A stretch of 7,002 nucleotides of DNA from a virus. Its lineage: Duplodnaviria; Heunggongvirae; Uroviricota; Caudoviricetes. The notes under the pieces were generated by a model. That model saw only the letters and a list, made by a program, of their open reading frames with translations, was not told the DNA's origin and made no database searches. Within the stretch, counting starts at the first letter, position 1, and every line of letters starts with the position of its first letter. Positions 1-6,896 of the stretch are shown here, piece after piece. The translations under genes were made by a program, and so were the position numbers. The stretch lies in the IMG/VR virus record IMGVR_UViG_3300029745_000141. One strand, written 5' to 3'.

Positions 1-108
1 CGGTGTTGCAGAAGAAATCCCGCTGCTGCCTGTGGCGGTATGAGCCGGATCATTACCAGCAAAAATACGTACTTCCGCACGCTGTTCAGTGATGGTTTTC
101 GTTACCAT
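1..108 (-). CDS. D: Head decoration protein (lambda gpD-like), 5' partial; start at 108, runs off the window edge
   Basis: Manual minus-strand translation from the ATG at 108 gives MVTKTITEQRAEVRIFAGNDPAHTATGSSGISSATP. The NDPAHTAT segment matches the N-terminus of lambda gpD as I recall it. A GAGG Shine-Dalgarno lies about 10 nt upstream, and the gene sits directly downstream of the C/Nu3 gene as in lambda. Confidence 0.7.
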   Translation of the reverse strand, partial: MVTKTITEQRAEVRIFAGNDPAHTATGSSGISSATP

Positions 109-144
109 ATTGTAAAAACCTCATATTGATGGTCAGCACTGACT

Positions 145-747
145 TCATGGCATGGCCATGAGCATTTTCACGTCCGCATCACCGTCTGCCGACGTCTGTG
201 ACACGCCACCCTGCACGGCTGCCGGTGAATGGTTCGCCATGATGCGTTCAAACATGGCGGTTGTGGATGCAGAAACCGGTTCTGCTTTATCCGGCGATGA
301 GGAGAGAATGTCGCGGGCAGCCTCCACCGTCATTCCGGGAAACGCCGCCAGTTTTTCAGCCTGCGCCTCAGCCCCTTTTGCCTCATCCAGAGCCATAATC
401 TGATCACGGAGTGAGGGTCCGGCATCCGCCTGCGGTGAAGCCGCCAGGATCGGGCGGGCTTTTTCCACCGTCATATCCGGCATCGCCGCCAGCGTTGCCG
501 CCAGTTGTTCACGACCTTTAGCCTCTTCACACGCCATAATGCGATCGGCTTCACTCTGCGTGGATGCCACCGGCTGCTGTGGTGCTGCCGCGGTCAGAAT
601 CGCCCGGGCCTGTTCAACGCTCATGCCCTGTTGTCCTGCCAGCATCGTGGCAAGCTGTTCACGTCCCTTCGCTTCCTGACACGTCAGGATCCCCATCACT
701 CGCTGGTTCTCCTGCGCGGCAGCTTCCGTTGCAGTTAATTGCGGCAT
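145..747 (-). CDS. nu3: Nested in-frame scaffold protein (lambda Nu3-like), internal start at Met302 of the protease ORF, about 200 aa
   Basis: An in-frame ATG (minus-strand codon at 745..747) is preceded by a strong AGGAGG Shine-Dalgarno (plus coordinates 752..757) with a 4-nt spacer. The product begins MPQLTATEAAA, at the position corresponding to where lambda Nu3 starts inside C as I recall it. In lambda, Nu3 is the C-terminal third of C translated from an internal start. Confidence 0.55.
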   Translation of the reverse strand: MPQLTATEAAAQENQRVMGILTCQEAKGREQLATMLAGQQGMSVEQARAILTAAAPQQPVASTQSEADRIMACEEAKGREQLAATLAAMPDMTVEKARPILAASPQADAGPSLRDQIMALDEAKGAEAQAEKLAAFPGMTVEAARDILSSSPDKAEPVSASTTAMFERIMANHSPAAVQGGVSQTSADGDADVKMLMAMP

Positions 748-1650
748 AGTGCCTCCTGTATCATGAGTGTTCAGCGCCGCAACCATCACACTGATGGCAT
801 CCGACGCATTGATTAATTCATCCGCCAGCCCGGCCTCAATGCCGGACTGACCTTCAAAAACGGCGGCCTCTGTTCCCGTGACTGCATCAACAGACAGACC
901 GGTATACATCGCCACTTTTTCGGCAAACATCCGGCGCGCCGCATCAATCCGCTGCTGCATGTCCTGGCGAACCTCTTCCGGCAACGCTTCAAACTGATTG
1001 CCATCCACCTTGTGCGCCCCTGAGTAAATCAGCGTGATATCCACACCGGCCTGCGCCAGATGACCGGCATAGCTGACATGGCTCATCATCACGCCAATGG
1101 AGCCGATACGGGATGTCTGGGTAACCAGCCGTCGGGAGCAGGCCGACGCCAGCAGCATGGCTGCAGAACAGGCCGTGTCATTGCACAGTGCCCAGACCGG
1201 CTTCTGCTGACTAAGTCGGTAAATCATGTCAGCACAGTCAAACGCACCGGCGGCCTGCCCGCCCGGACTGTCAATGTCCAGCAGTACACCCCGCACCTGG
1301 CTATCCGCCATTGCCTGCTGAAGACAGGCGACAATGCCGTCATAGCCTGTCATTCCGGAAAATGGCCGCATACCCCCCAGCCGGTGCACCAGCGTGCCTG
1401 TCACCGGCAGTACAGCAATACCGTTCACCACCCGGTAAACACGGGCCGGTCGTTTACCTCCGGCCATGTACTCGTCCGTTTCAGCCAGCATTCCGGGAGC
1501 ATCAAGCTGTACCTGCTGTTGTGGTACCGAAAGCCTTGCTGCCCCCATCTCGCGCCCGAGCGCGCAAAAGAAAACCCGCGCATAGGCGGGCTCCAGAAGC
1601 AGCGGTTCATTGAATGCTGCTGCAATAATGTGTGAAAGATTACGTCTCAC
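145..1650 (-). CDS. C: Prohead maturation protease, S49/ClpP-like family (lambda gpC-like), 501 aa
   Basis: 501-aa ORF from the track. The N-terminal two thirds align closely with lambda gpC as recalled (FNEPLLLEPAYARVFFCAL, NGIAVLPVTGTLV, GAFDCAD, KPVWALCND, RRLVTQTSRIGSIGVMM, ITLIYSGAHKVDGN). Its position downstream of the portal gene with an 11-nt overlap matches lambda gene order. Confidence 0.9.
   Translation of the reverse strand: MRRNLSHIIAAAFNEPLLLEPAYARVFFCALGREMGAARLSVPQQQVQLDAPGMLAETDEYMAGGKRPARVYRVVNGIAVLPVTGTLVHRLGGMRPFSGMTGYDGIVACLQQAMADSQVRGVLLDIDSPGGQAAGAFDCADMIYRLSQQKPVWALCNDTACSAAMLLASACSRRLVTQTSRIGSIGVMMSHVSYAGHLAQAGVDITLIYSGAHKVDGNQFEALPEEVRQDMQQRIDAARRMFAEKVAMYTGLSVDAVTGTEAAVFEGQSGIEAGLADELINASDAISVMVAALNTHDTGGTMPQLTATEAAAQENQRVMGILTCQEAKGREQLATMLAGQQGMSVEQARAILTAAAPQQPVASTQSEADRIMACEEAKGREQLAATLAAMPDMTVEKARPILAASPQADAGPSLRDQIMALDEAKGAEAQAEKLAAFPGMTVEAARDILSSSPDKAEPVSASTTAMFERIMANHSPAAVQGGVSQTSADGDADVKMLMAMP
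292..708 (-). repeat. Three diverged tandem copies of a roughly 40-aa unit inside the C/Nu3 coding region, plus a degenerate fourth remnant nearer the 3' end
   Basis: Protein units: QRVMGILTCQEAKGREQLATMLAGQQGMSVEQARAILTAAAPQ; EADRIMACEEAKGREQLAATLAAMPDMTVEKARPILAASPQ; LRDQIMALDEAKGAEAQAEKLAAFPGMTVEAARDILSSSP. The DNA similarity is also visible, e.g. ...ttcacacgccataatgcgatc... at about 520..545 versus ...atccagagccataatctgatc... at about 385..405. Lambda gpC/Nu3, as I recall it, carries a single copy (RIMGILNCEEAHGREEQARVLAETPGMTVKTARRILAAAPQ). Confidence 0.6.
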
Positions 1651-3232
1651 GTGGTGTTGTCTCCTCTTCCGGCCTGCGACTCTCCGCTATCTGCTGCTGA
1701 TACGCCTGCGCTATCCACACCGGACGTGAGAGTCCGGCTTTTTCCCGCTCTGCAGATTCCCTGACCTGCTGGCGGAAAATGTCCTGATAATCCTCGCCCA
1801 TCAGCGCCAGCTCTTTCTCATACGTGCTCAGTCCGGCCTCAATGCGCATCACTGATTCCTGAACCTCCTTGAGCCCGTCAATGGCCATTCTTCCGGCTCC
1901 AATCCACTCAGCCCGTGACCAGGCTGATCGCGCCTGATAAAAATCAAAACGTGCCCGTGGCGGACGAATAATCCCCCGAAGAAGTGCCTCTTCCAGCCAG
2001 CAGGAAAACATCTGCGTGGCCAGCCGGGACGCAATAAATTTTCGCCGCCCCATAAAATAGCGCCACGACTCATTGGCGGATGCGCGGGCACTTGAATAAC
2101 TGACCTTCGAGTAATCACGGGACAACTGTTCGTAGGAAACGCCAAGACCGGCGGCGATATACCGCAGCAGCGCCTGTTCAAGCGCCGAAAATCCATTGTC
2201 TGAATCCTGCGCGGTCTGAAGTTTCAGATCATCACCGGGGAAAAGGTGCGGAATTTTGACACCGCCCAGCGTCACGCTATTCGTGTCATACCAGGTGGAG
2301 AACTTATCCAGAATATTAATAAGCGGATTATCCTTCTGCCCCTGCGGCGCACCGGCGATATATTCAAAGGCCTTTTCGGTATCAAGGTCACTTTCAATCG
2401 TCGCTGCATACATCGCCTTCACTATGGCCGACTGAAGCTGTGTTGCCTGCAGGGAATCGAGCATCTTCAGCCGTTCCATTACGCTGTAAAACTGATTGGC
2501 TCCACGGGTCTGCCCGTCCTCCACCGGCTCGAAAATATGCAGCATGGCCGGACGCCCGGTGGGAAGTTCACGCGGGATCCGTTCCCATCGTCCACTCCCA
2601 GAGAACGGAAAATCATCCTCACAGATATGGTACGCAACGGCACGACCATATCGATCGACCTCCACACCGGCCCGCAGAAAACGGTTCCCCATACCGTGTC
2701 CTGGCGTGTCCACCCGTTTCGGACTCACGGCTTTAAAACGCGTACGAAACAGTTGCGTGCTCTCCGTATCCCAGACCGGCTGCACAAAGATTTCGCCGTT
2801 AAACGCATGAACGCCCACACCTTCACGGATAAATTCCGTAAACGTGCGTTTCCCTTCCACGTCGATCTCGCCAAACATCCCTTCGGCGTATTCCGACCAG
2901 GCCGCCTCCACCTCATCGACAAAGCTTTTTGCTGCGGTCTCCCGCATCCCCAGCCAGCGCCAGTTCGGACGGTAGCTGATCAGAAACATATGCCCGACAA
3001 TATGATCCTTATGCAGGGCCACCGCATTAGCCGCTATCCCGTTATTGCGCACCAGATCATCTGCCCGGGCATTCCCCAGACGCAACGCAGGCAGCAGGGC
3101 TGCATCGGCACTCTGCGCCGGTGGCAACCACTCCGCCATTTGCCCGCCAAATCCTGCACCGCCCCCGTTGTAGCTGAGACTCTCACGAAGCGGAACGCCG
3201 TTCACATCAATCAGGACAGGCGTTCGTTTCAT
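1640..3232 (-). CDS. B: Portal protein (lambda gpB-like), 530 aa
   Basis: 530-aa ORF with extensive colinear similarity to lambda gpB as recalled (GNARADDLVRNNG, FEPVEDGQTRGANQFYSVME, LQSAIVKAMYAATIES, LLRYIAAGLGVSYEQLSR, SYSSARASANESW, FMGRRKF, WIGAGRMAIDGLKEVQESVM, IEAGLSTYEKE). Its start overlaps the W stop by 4 nt, as in lambda. Confidence 0.95.
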   Translation of the reverse strand: MKRTPVLIDVNGVPLRESLSYNGGGAGFGGQMAEWLPPAQSADAALLPALRLGNARADDLVRNNGIAANAVALHKDHIVGHMFLISYRPNWRWLGMRETAAKSFVDEVEAAWSEYAEGMFGEIDVEGKRTFTEFIREGVGVHAFNGEIFVQPVWDTESTQLFRTRFKAVSPKRVDTPGHGMGNRFLRAGVEVDRYGRAVAYHICEDDFPFSGSGRWERIPRELPTGRPAMLHIFEPVEDGQTRGANQFYSVMERLKMLDSLQATQLQSAIVKAMYAATIESDLDTEKAFEYIAGAPQGQKDNPLINILDKFSTWYDTNSVTLGGVKIPHLFPGDDLKLQTAQDSDNGFSALEQALLRYIAAGLGVSYEQLSRDYSKVSYSSARASANESWRYFMGRRKFIASRLATQMFSCWLEEALLRGIIRPPRARFDFYQARSAWSRAEWIGAGRMAIDGLKEVQESVMRIEAGLSTYEKELALMGEDYQDIFRQQVRESAEREKAGLSRPVWIAQAYQQQIAESRRPEEETTPRET

Positions 3233-3435
3233 AACCTCACTCCCAGCGGACGACGGCGACGCCGGGTTGTCCCCAGTACCGACTCCGCATCATTGATCGC
3301 CCGGTTAAGCTCATCCAGAGAAGCCGCCGTATATTCAATTCTGCGACCATCTTTCTGGACAGACACCACCCGTTTACCGGTTAATAAATCAAGGCGCGCC
3401 TGACGCAGCGCCTGCAGTTCAGCGACTGTAACCAT
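3229..3435 (-). CDS. W: Head completion / head-tail joining protein (lambda gpW-like), 68 aa
   Basis: 68-aa ORF, the same length as lambda gpW, with a conserved core (LLTGKRVVSVQKDGRRIEYTAASL versus lambda [24 protein letters not shown] as recalled). It lies between the large terminase and portal genes. Confidence 0.85.
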   Translation of the reverse strand: MVTVAELQALRQARLDLLTGKRVVSVQKDGRRIEYTAASLDELNRAINDAESVLGTTRRRRRPLGVRL

Positions 3436-5347
3436 TCACTCCTCCGGACAGCTTCGCTGCCAGTTCTTTAAGGGTTGGCCGGGTCGTCTCTTCTTCCCGG
3501 GATTTTGCCAGTACAGCCAGATCAAGCTGCCAGCGTTGCACGGACACACGTAATGCCGCGTAGGCATACACCAGGCAGTCCAGCGCTTCGTTACGCCGCT
3601 TTTTGTTATCCCACAGCAGACGCATCTTTCCTTTTTCCCACTTCTCCACAAGCTCTTCCGCGACCAGTTGCTGCGCCTCTGTCTGCGAAAAAATCTCCGG
3701 ATCATCAGGAAAACGGATGGCATACGACGTGGCTTCATCCGCAGGCGTGGGATCGGCTTTCATACGGGCATAGAGAATTTCTTTTGCGGTGTCCGTCCCC
3801 ACTTCGCACAGATACACGCCCCGCTGATTGCGGGTTTTTGGCATGGTGATCACCGGCTTGCCATAAACAGATGCACCTTTTACCGGCAGCACCCGGAAAA
3901 CACCGTGTTTTTTTGACCTCTGATAGACAATTTCGCCATCGATCCCTCCGGTGTCCCAGCAGACACGGGAAATGGTCATTTCGGTTCCGTCTGCATGGCG
4001 GTATTTTTTGTTGATCGCCACATCCACACGTAACAGCGTCTCTTCCTCATCGGGACGCCCCATAATGATGATTTTATCCACCAGAAAGGCTTCCTCTCCC
4101 GGAGCCCATCCCCAGACATACATCTCAAAACGGTTTCGCTGCGAGTCAATGCCCGCCGTCAGATAAACCACCCGGGAAGGCACCGCAGCCGTGTAACGCA
4201 CAACCTTATCCATCAGCACCTGGTGATCGAGTTTTTCGCCCACGGCCTCTTCCCAGGTCTCGCCCAGCGTGGTGTTCACAAAGGTTTTCAGGCCGTTGGG
4301 ATCTTTCAGTGCATCCAGCCAGTCATAGACAATCTGTACCCAGGTGGTGAACGGACTGTACGCCGTCCAGATATGGAATGTGATGGAGCGCGGCGGCGGA
4401 ATTTCATTACCCGCAGCGCTGAAAAACGTCAGGCCGTCACGGGTCCACATGCCCGTGTTTTCACAGATCCACCGCCCGTTGCTCTGGTCAAGATCAGACT
4501 GATGGATCACGCAGCCATGATGTTCACAGAGGTAGAAAACACTTTCTGGACTGTCCTTCTCCCATTTAAGGCCAAAAGGCGTGGACTCATCGCCAAATTT
4601 CAGATACTGCGCCTCCCCACAGTGTGGGCAGGGCACATAAAAACGCATGAAATGCGCCGACTCGTTGGCCGCTTTTTCGATCTGGCAGGAGCCTTTTATT
4701 TTAGGCGTCGAGCCGCGAATGGATTTTGGCCATACCGAGCCCTCAATACGCTTATCCCCCAGCAGGGTTGGCGAGCCCTCTTTTTCGACATCCGGCTCGA
4801 ACGAGGAAAGTTCGTCATAGCAGACCACGTCCACGGATTTTTCACGGTAGTTTTTGGCGGCAGCACCACCCAGGCACCAGAACCCCACACGGGACGTGAA
4901 TCTTTTTAATGTCAGTGTGTTATCCCGGTGCTTACGCCCCAGCCAGGGGGAAAGAATTTTCAGACAGGGAACATCCCGTAATGTTGACTCCACATGAGAC
5001 TTCATAAAATCTTCAGCGGCAGAATCCGTAGGCTGAAACAGAAGACTGTTACGGTTTTTATGCTCAATAAAGTAACCAATAACGCCCATCAGCATTTTGG
5101 TGTAACCGACTCGAGCTGATTTTATAAGATTAATTGTGCGGATCCGGTCATTACCCATGCAGTTCATTATTGCCACCTGAAAGGGCAACGTCTTCCACCG
5201 CCCAGCAAGATAAGAGGACTCCGGGGGCAAATAATAATTTTGATCGGCCCATTCAACGGTGGTTACAGGCAGTGGGCGTAAAAGCCCACGAAGTGCCACT
5301 CCACAAACAACAGCAAAGTTATTTAGCTGCTTCTCTGAGGTATTCAT
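3419..5347 (-). CDS. A: Terminase large subunit (lambda gpA-like), 642 aa, with ATPase and nuclease domains
   Basis: 642-aa ORF (lambda gpA is 641 aa) with near-colinear similarity to gpA as recalled ([20 protein letters not shown], a Walker-A-like KSARVGYTK motif at about 5096..5122, [92 protein letters not shown]). Its 5' end overlaps the Nu1 3' end by 29 nt, a long overlap as in lambda. Confidence 0.95.
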
Positions 5348-5867
5348 CCAGCATCTCCGGTAACTTCTCTGCCGTTGATGCGCATCGGTTTGCCGCCTTT
5401 GCTATATCGGTTTTCAGGAAATCAAGCATAGCGGGCGTCAGTGCCGGAAACTGTCTCTGCATGGACAATGGAATGGAGTCAAGAATGGCAGAGATCTCCT
5501 GTGCCAGTCTTCCCAGAGCAAAAAGGCAAAACCCTGTATCAATGACCTGCCCACTGTCGCGGGCATTTTTCAGTTCCTGTGCATCTGCCTGTGCCTTCGT
5601 CAGTCGGTAACGTTCGTAATCAATGGTGCCGGGCTGAAGGTCTGATTCGCTGGCAGCCCTCAAATCCTCGACCTCTTTACGGAGTTTTTCATTTTCAATA
5701 TCAGCTTCGCGCTGAGCATACCATTCGATCGCCTTCGCAGAATCAAAGATGACCTCAACACCTTTTCCTCCACCAGATATCTGAGGGAGCCCCTGAGTTT
5801 GCCAGCGATCAATAGTGCGTATATCGACATTAAAGATTTCAGCAAGCTTCTTTTTATTAACATTCAT
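5319..5867 (-). CDS. nu1: Terminase small subunit (lambda Nu1-like), 182 aa, cosB-binding winged HTH at the N-terminus
   Basis: 182-aa ORF. The N-terminus [28 protein letters not shown] matches lambda Nu1 (MEVNKKQLADIFGASIRTIQNWQEQGMP as recalled), with further conserved blocks ([35 protein letters not shown]). AAGGA Shine-Dalgarno 8 nt upstream of the ATG. It sits immediately next to the cos site. Confidence 0.9.
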
Positions 5868-6043: not shown

Positions 6044-6055
6044 AGGTCGCCGCCC
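6044..6055. other. cosN, the 12-bp cohesive-end nicking site (intact, i.e. prophage or concatemer form)
   Basis: The sequence aggtcgccgccc at 6044..6055 is the exact reverse complement of the lambda cohesive end GGGCGGCGACCT. It is flanked by lambda-like left-end and right-end sequence on either side. Confidence 0.8.
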
Positions 6056-6422: not shown

Positions 6423-6896
6423 TTATCTGAGGCATTGCTCACGAATGTATAGCTGTGCCCCTTCCAGCTGCTTCTGCATTGTCATCAACCGTTCTCTGAG
6501 GATGAAATAATCCCGTTCAGCGGCGTCTGCCAGTCTGGGGCCGGTTGCATTATCCACGCCGGAGGTGGTGGGGGCTTCACGCACGGAGCCTGGACAGGTG
6601 GCGTTGATCCGCAGGCGCTTACGACCAGCGGCAACGTCAGCGCGAAGAGTTTCATTTTCAGCTCTCGCATCGGCTAATTCCCTCGAGTATTTTGCATCGA
6701 GCGCAGCAACATCGCGCTGGCGCACCTGCATATCAGTAATGGTTGCGTTCGCCAGCTTCAGTTCACTGGCTTTGTTATCGCGCTGCGCTTTGTAGGTAAT
6801 CGCGTTATCACGGTAATGGTCTGTTGCCATCCACAGCGCTCCACAGGCCACCAGCAGAATAACGATAAACGCGGAAAGCATTCGGTTTATGTTCAC
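6423..6896 (-). CDS. Rz: Rz inner-membrane spanin (i-spanin) subunit; GTG start at 6896 (157 aa) or ATG at 6881 (152 aa)
   Basis: Strong similarity to lambda Rz as recalled ([74 protein letters not shown]). Single N-terminal transmembrane segment followed by a periplasmic coiled-coil-like domain. The ORF track start is a GTG whose G-T-G-A overlaps the stop of the upstream ORF. The ATG at 6881 gives an N-terminus with no positive residue before the transmembrane segment, so GTG is slightly favoured. Confidence 0.9.
6485..6670 (-). CDS. Rz1: Rz1 outer-membrane lipoprotein spanin (o-spanin), embedded entirely in the +1 frame of Rz, 61 aa
   Basis: [20 protein letters not shown] has a signal peptide and lipobox (VSAC) followed by the proline-rich mature peptide [32 protein letters not shown]. 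This closely matches lambda Rz1 ([31 protein letters not shown] as recalled). The ORF lies wholly inside Rz in another frame, the classic embedded spanin architecture. Confidence 0.85.

Follow-up and report, generated by a model that had tools for sequence, protein, structure and literature searches.

Three diverged tandem units in the scaffold part of a lambda C/Nu3-type head gene, very probably the Tri-box triplication of phage 21

Introduction

Assembly of the phage lambda head depends on a scaffolding protein, Nu3, which interacts with itself as well as with C, B and E. Nu3 is required for incorporation of the portal and has been broken down by the time DNA is packaged, presumably by C, one of its interaction partners (PMC3224144). 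Beyond this interaction map, we found nothing usable in the literature on the head genes of phage 21 or on the structure of Nu3.

Phage 21 encodes the corresponding proteins in its genes 5 and 6, and a triplication within these genes is a known feature of phage 21-type head genes that has been annotated for decades and is not new. The record of the phage 21 head operon is said to go back to a paper by Smith and Feiss (Gene, 1993). In this record (GenBank M81255.1, Bacteriophage 21 head gene operon), gene 6 carries three repeat_regions, termed "Tri1 box", "Tri box" and "Tri3 box" and described there as "function unknown; putative".

Here we analyze a related gene in a stretch of 7,002 nucleotides of viral DNA (IMG/VR record IMGVR_UViG_3300029745_000141), which as a whole is called the window. 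An initial annotation, made from the letters alone, had noticed three tandem copies of a motif in the C-terminal part of a lambda gpC-like protein. We conclude with high confidence that this feature is the phage 21-type Tri-box triplication of the protease/scaffold gene, and we describe how its units compare with those of other phages and prophages.

Results

The window contains the head operon of a phage 21-type prophage

Over its whole length the window is 98.8% identical to Escherichia phage PhiR5_1, and its positions 1-5263 are 94.6% identical to phage 21. All of its genes lie on the minus strand (Table 1), and the portal, C-like and shp/D-like genes follow one another as in a lambda-type head operon. 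The exact cohesive-end sequence of lambda and phage 21 is found between the Rz-like and the small terminase gene, and the window thus crosses a joined cos site, as in a prophage or a circularised genome. The source element is a phage-21-type E. coli prophage. Inside the Rz-like gene, a 61-aa ORF in another frame (6485-6670, minus strand) has a lipoprotein-like start (LVVSAC) and a proline-rich stretch, which is the usual embedded Rz1 arrangement.

Table 1. Coordinates of features in the window and, in the last three rows, of ClpP-type loci carrying the unit (positions within the respective locus)
Feature	Position	Strand	Evidence and remarks
Rz-like gene	6423-6896	-	ORF list; embedded Rz1-like ORF
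cosN	6044-6055	-	exact lambda/21 cohesive-end sequence GGGCGGCGACCT
Small terminase gene	5319-5867	-	
Large terminase gene	3419-5347	-	
W-like gene	3229-3435	-	
Portal(-like) ORF	1640-3232	-	overlaps start of C-like gene
gpC-like gene (phage 21 gene 5 type)	145-1650	-	501-aa prohead protease/scaffold; GTG start overlapping portal gene end
Peptidase S49 domain	778-1215	-	aa 146-291 (Pfam); PF01343, E 5e-35, above gathering score
AGGAGG ribosome-binding site of nested ORF	752-757	-	sequence read; annotated there in M81255.1 and OL657228.1
Nested in-frame scaffold ORF (phage 21 gp6, lambda Nu3 analogue)	145-747	-	200 aa; ATG 747-745 = Met301
Unit 1, ENQRVMGILTCQEAKGREQLATMLAGQQGMSVEQARAILTAAAPQQ	574-711	-	aa 314-359; HMM E 2e-24; contains Tri1 box (577-680)
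Unit 2, SEADRIMACEEAKGREQLAATLAAMPDMTVEKARPILAASPQADA	421-555	-	aa 366-410; HMM E 9e-28; contains Tri (second) box (430-540)
Unit 3, SLRDQIMALDEAKGAEAQAEKLAAFPGMTVEAARDILSSSPDKAE	280-414	-	aa 413-457; HMM E 2e-26; contains Tri3 box (286-399)
C-terminal tail	148-279	-	aa 458-501; conserved F-E-x-(I/F)-M and D-x-x-x-L-M-x-x-P motifs
Proposed fourth remnant, FERIMANHSPAA	220-255	-	aa 466-477; within tail; not a significant repeat copy
shp/D-like gene	starts at 108, runs off window	-	
ClpP-type locus, Rhizobium (L019)	1718-2848		carries the unit
ClpP-type locus, Hoeflea (L021)	1601-2788		carries the unit
ClpP-type locus, Paracoccus (L033)	1577-2812		carries the unit

A protease/scaffold gene with a nested scaffold product

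At the nucleotide level, the gpC-like gene is 99.5% identical to that of PhiR5_1 and 95.2% identical to gene 5 of phage 21. Its 501-aa product matches phrog_53 (head maturation protease, E 1e-224). Besides the Pfam S49 domain, an SppA-like region is recognized at aa 77-289, which matches the SppA structures 3rst and 4kwb (E about 5e-16), and the scaffold part matches phrog_8399 (head scaffolding protein) and phrog_8940 (capsid assembly protein). The start codon of the nested ORF, at window position 747, is the start Met of gene 6 or the scaffolding protein in both M81255.1 and the complete phage 21 genome, OL657228.1.

The initial annotation had taken the gene for an equivalent of lambda C/Nu3 and had placed the repeats in its Nu3-like scaffold moiety. 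The first assignment is upheld by the S49 domain, the nested ATG with its ribosome-binding site and the position in the head operon, the second by the internal start at 747-745 and by gene 6 as annotated in phage 21. Judged by its sequence, this is a protease/scaffold gene of the lambda C/Nu3 and phage 21 gp5/gp6 type with a predicted nested product.

The lambda and phage 21 records disagree on where the scaffold product starts. RefSeq lambda (NC_001416) places nu3 at 5132-5737 (201 aa; positions 833-1438 of our locus L003), with a start inside the protease domain, and the start of phage 21 gene 6 aligns with a later lambda Met, in GGRMTKET (versus GGTMPQLT).

Three tandem units that are visible in the protein only

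A unit HMM, built from the three window units together with the lambda unit, delimited three consecutive copies of about 45 residues each (Table 1), in agreement with the three tandem copies that had been proposed for positions 292-708. In pairwise local alignments, the z values were 19.0 for units 1 and 2, 11.4 for units 1 and 3, and 17.5 for units 2 and 3, and none of 5000 shuffles reached the observed score; the internal repeats, whose significance the initial annotation had left to be probed, are thus clearly significant. In addition, each of the PHROG scaffold profiles 8399, 8940 and 17040 gave three matches in the C-terminal part of the 501-aa protein. Self-BLASTP of this protein returned the identity match alone, and it is the unit-by-unit alignment with shuffles that demonstrates the repeats.

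The unit cores share 47-62% of their nucleotides, and where two units have the same residue (16-22 codons), the codon differs synonymously in 10-12 cases. Tandem Repeats Finder reported no repeat in the DNA, and a seed-based repeat finder returned short chance pairs only. The unit repeat is detectable in the protein, not in the DNA. From this low identity, the scrambled synonymous codons and the blank Tandem Repeats Finder result it follows that the copies are ancient and do not stem from misassembly, as had been suggested from their divergence.

We therefore give next to no weight to the reading that the repeat arose in assembly, or that it consists of binding sites acting in the DNA rather than in the protein. 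The complete phage 21 genome OL657228.1 does annotate two matches to the CII site consensus pattern in the region, and we do not count this in favor of the reading. Against it stand the divergence of the copies with their scrambled synonymous sites, the failure of both repeat finders to report a repeat in the DNA, conservation at the level of the protein, and the occurrence of the three-unit gene in isolated phages as well as in 1870 complete genomes.

When the Tri boxes of M81255.1 were mapped onto the window by 1:1 alignment, all three came to lie inside the HMM units. Among 5426 complete E. coli genomes, 1870 carry the 606-bp scaffold segment at >=90% identity, in nearly every case over its full length; one exact match lies in E. 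coli strain STEC17-183.

Lambda carries a single unit

The gpC protein of lambda (439 aa, NC_001416) carries one unit, RIMGILNCEEAHGREEQARVLAETPGMTVKTARRILAAAP, as had been stated in the initial annotation and as the alignment with lambda gpC now bears out. This unit is most like unit 1 of the window (z = 22), and window unit 1 is the orthologue of lambda's single unit. The surplus length of the window protein had been ascribed to the expansion (501 versus 439 aa). The expansion does add length, but the gain is larger than the difference between the proteins: units 2 and 3 with their linkers contribute about 98 aa, whereas 36 aa of the Ser/Thr/Ala-rich linker that precedes the unit in lambda are missing, a deficit that the earlier accounting had ignored, and the net difference is +62 aa.

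A degenerate fourth copy of the unit had also been proposed, namely FERIMANHSPAA, and this claim did not hold. Compared with the units, the segment has z values of -0.2 to -0.8, the HMM gives no match at a domain E <= 1, and its resemblance to unit 2 extends over 5 residues only (ERIMA/DRIMA). The segment aligns with LDRLMQGAPAP in the tail of lambda gpC and hence did not arise in this expansion; if it is a unit relic at all, it is older than the split between lambda and phage 21. The tail in which it lies has conserved features of its own, in that F166, M170 and D190 (numbering of the 200-aa product) are nearly invariant across the homologue alignment A1.

Structure prediction suggests small helical modules

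In an AlphaFold2 model of the 200-aa scaffold product, which was based on a 20-sequence alignment, the units appear as short helices with a pLDDT of 70-80, and the pTM of the whole is 0.26. The linkers between the units are short and rich in Pro, Gln, Ala and Ser; their average pLDDT is about 57-61, and values below 50 occur only at residues 56-63. A model of a single unit, from a shallow alignment, consists of a long helix, a G-M-S/T turn and a second helix (pLDDT 72). The two models, both of moderate confidence, differ as to a break of the first helix at EAKG, such that only the helix-turn-helix core is firm. With respect to the possibility, raised in the initial annotation, that the repeats form helical hairpins, the units are indeed predicted as hairpin-like modules, and the models would depict them as independent small helical modules on flexible linkers.

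The initial annotation had also raised the possibility that the unit is a defined domain, and no named domain emerged from Pfam or the PDB. Pfam gave nothing significant for the scaffold part or for 24 individual units. Sequence and profile searches of the PDB with the unit returned chance-level matches only, for instance to designed toroid repeats and NusA AR (E >= 0.01), and Foldseek searches of the PDB with the 200-aa and the single-unit model gave no match at E < 0.9. We considered whether the unit could be a coat-binding domain of the type found in P22 gp8 and rejected this, since hhalign of the unit profile against gp8 gave a probability of 1.7%, with the aligned stretch lying outside the coat-binding domain, and Foldseek found no match. 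A search of the representative library with one 45-aa unit, a query of little power, gave 54 matches. Those with many matching stretches (P0103, P0121 and P0123) are unrelated repetitive proteins and were rejected as unit arrays.

Selection on the units, and a divergent patch at the end of unit 3

We calculated dN/dS for each unit by the method of Nei and Gojobori, comparing the window gene with those of phage 21, an E. coli chromosomal locus (L004) and an E. albertii locus (L006). Against phage 21 and the E. coli locus, the ratio per unit was 0.05-0.31, similar to the 0.09-0.27 of the protease domain. A higher value, 0.47 for unit 1 against E. albertii, derives from 5 substitutions only. All three units are thus kept as protein under purifying selection.

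Divergence from phage 21 is concentrated at the end of unit 3, where 22 of the 74 nucleotide differences fall within 60 nt (window 271-330, minus strand). The dS of unit 3 is 0.74-1.1, whereas units 1 and 2 and the tail have 0.06-0.38; the linker of 6 codons between units is too short to be weighed. At the end of unit 3, the window has ARDILSSSPDKAE, phage 21 ARAVLAAGSGKAE and Gifsy-1 ARDLLAAAPDKSG, and the window allele is closer to that of Gifsy-1 than to that of phage 21. Judging from these alleles, the segment at 271-330 looks like a small patch of mosaicism or recombination.

One unit is the general state

In tblastn, unit 1 matched 224 phage records, among them lambda, N15, phi80-type phages and phages of Burkholderia, Vibrio, Proteus, Klebsiella and Xylella. 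A second matching place at E <= 0.01 was present in 19 of the 224, and among the matches listed these were all 21-type phages or Gifsy-1. Likewise, when one genome was scanned for each species, a single unit was found at 27 of 32 bacterial loci, including those of Kluyvera, Klebsiella, Erwinia, Vibrio, Rhizobium, Leptospira and Chryseobacterium. One unit is therefore the general and ancestral state. Unit counts in protein homologues are valid only where the C-terminal part is complete, most homologues being fragments at contig ends. Three units were found in E. coli, Shigella, E. albertii, Trabulsiella guamensis and Providencia alcalifaciens, in fragments from Salmonella, and in STM2605 of Gifsy-1. 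A survey of copy number, which the initial annotation had proposed, hence gives one unit as the rule, three in the 21/Gifsy-1 group, two in rare forms and four in a separate E. coli lineage.

Units in corresponding positions of the E. coli and Salmonella proteins are 81, 76 and 62% alike, as compared to 38-56% for units within one protein, and unit 1 always retains the lambda-like RVMGIL start. Because units at the same position are more alike across proteins than units within a protein, the triplication must be older than these lineages, and each unit has since diverged on its own. We take it to have arisen once, through ancient tandem duplications before the phage 21/Gifsy-1 group diversified.

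The rare two-unit forms in E. coli derive from the three-unit gene by in-frame deletion. One of them (P0022) is a clean, precise hybrid of units 1 and 2; in P0021 and P0017 most or all of unit 2 is missing, and in P0012 and P0014, the latter representing 53 member sequences, half of it. A four-unit E. coli lineage (P0023; positions 1-1043 of L036, from GCA_032727965.1) is embedded in a lambda-type head operon that is intact, and it is found in 106 of the 5426 complete genomes. The identity among its units 2-4 is 78-84%, which would imply a recent duplication or gene conversion. Among the isolated phages in the collection the four-unit form has no carrier, the best match being 61%.

Such variation invites the reading that the extra units are tolerated filler, which lengthens a largely disordered scaffold or tether without units 2 and 3 making specific contacts. 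That copy number naturally ranges from 1 to 4 with similar capsid genes, that the databases hold sequences with an in-frame loss of all or part of unit 2 (the five forms just listed), and that the model has a low pTM and flexible linkers would all fit with this. We nevertheless consider it improbable, because the dN/dS per unit is well below 1 in most comparisons and because the three-unit length of 606 bp is preserved in nearly all of the 1870 E. coli genomes with this segment. Moreover, position-specific residues are conserved among the E. coli, Salmonella, Trabulsiella and Providencia phages at an overall identity of 47-65%.

The unit is not confined to S49 proteases. In prophages of Rhizobium, Hoeflea and Paracoccus (Table 1) a single copy is found towards the C-terminus of ClpP-type prohead proteases (PF00574, E about 1e-24). 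Its presence downstream of both ClpP-type and S49 proteases shows the module to be portable and common to two protease families.

Discussion

What might the units do? The long product is an S49 serine protease whose C-terminal extension is the scaffold region, and this region would also be made alone, from the internal start, as a 200-aa scaffolding protein. Each unit may then be a module for protein-protein contacts of the scaffold, be it in self-association or with the major capsid protein or the portal. Three units on flexible linkers would make the scaffold multivalent, and would likewise provide the protease with a multivalent tether to the procapsid interior. Before DNA is packaged, the protease domain would then degrade the scaffold, as happens with lambda Nu3. 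We put forward the role of the units as multivalent contact modules as a plausible but tentative reading. The suggestion in the initial annotation that a changed copy number could alter the valency of scaffold-capsid or scaffold-portal interaction is speculative.

A different assignment would make the units docking or recognition elements for the protease domain, which mark the scaffold for degradation or regulate the protease. The interaction of lambda C with Nu3, and its presumed role in Nu3 degradation (PMC3224144), would be in line with this, as would the fact that the unit always lies downstream of a prohead protease, whether S49 or ClpP. However, an association with the protease is equally expected for a scaffold or targeting module that is encoded as a nested gene, and we regard protease docking as rather unlikely.

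Returning to the units as contact modules of the scaffold, it should be considered which part of the protein would bind the capsid. In other scaffolding proteins, such as those of P22 and 80alpha, the extreme C-terminal tail is the capsid-binding element. By analogy, the conserved extreme C-terminal tail of the window protein, rather than the units, could have this function here.

The natural forms with one to four units adjoin the same lambda-type capsid genes, and unit copy number may be loosely constrained. A determination of capsid size by copy number is unlikely, given that the four-unit form, too, adjoins these capsid genes; the genome sizes of phage 21 (42.9 kb) and lambda (48.5 kb) were also weighed in rejecting it.

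As a discovery the triplication matters little, having been annotated for decades and being present in roughly a third of complete E. coli genomes. What is added here are small additions: a single unit as the ancestral state, three units that are old, position-specific and each under selection, the two- and four-unit forms, and the presence of the unit with two protease families. As far as we found, the literature holds no description of the copy-number series or of a fusion of the unit to ClpP-type proteases. The value of these observations is comparative, in that they offer a cheap genetic handle on the role of a scaffold module in lambda-type head assembly. It is doubtful whether the unit is a valency-setting contact module of lambda-type scaffolds. 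If it were, nature would provide a series with one unit (lambda), two (the deletion derivatives), three (phage 21 and Gifsy-1) and four (106 E. coli genomes), and this series could reveal how the number of contact modules affects the assembly of a T=7 procapsid.

How, then, does the locus relate to the systems that have been described? One comparison is with gp8 of P22, whose C-terminal helix-turn-helix coat-binding domain is likewise a small hairpin-like helical element near the end of a scaffold. This is an analogy of predicted shape only, since the sequences are unrelated, gp8 has a single such element, and it is not fused to a protease. In lambda gpC/gpNu3, the protease domain is homologous, the scaffold is nested, the gene order is the same and the tails are positionally homologous, whereas there is one unit instead of three, preceded by the longer linker, in a protein of 439 rather than 501 aa. 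STM2605 of the Salmonella prophage Gifsy-1, a lambda gpC homologue of 498 aa, has three units in the same order, each closest to the unit at the same position, but its scaffold part is about 60% identical and its tail is longer. Closest of all are genes 5 and 6 of phage 21 (head-tail preconnector gp5 and scaffold gp6), which share the length of 501 aa, the nested start with its ribosome-binding site, and boxes that correspond to the units, and from which the window gene differs by 74 nucleotides over the length of gene 5.
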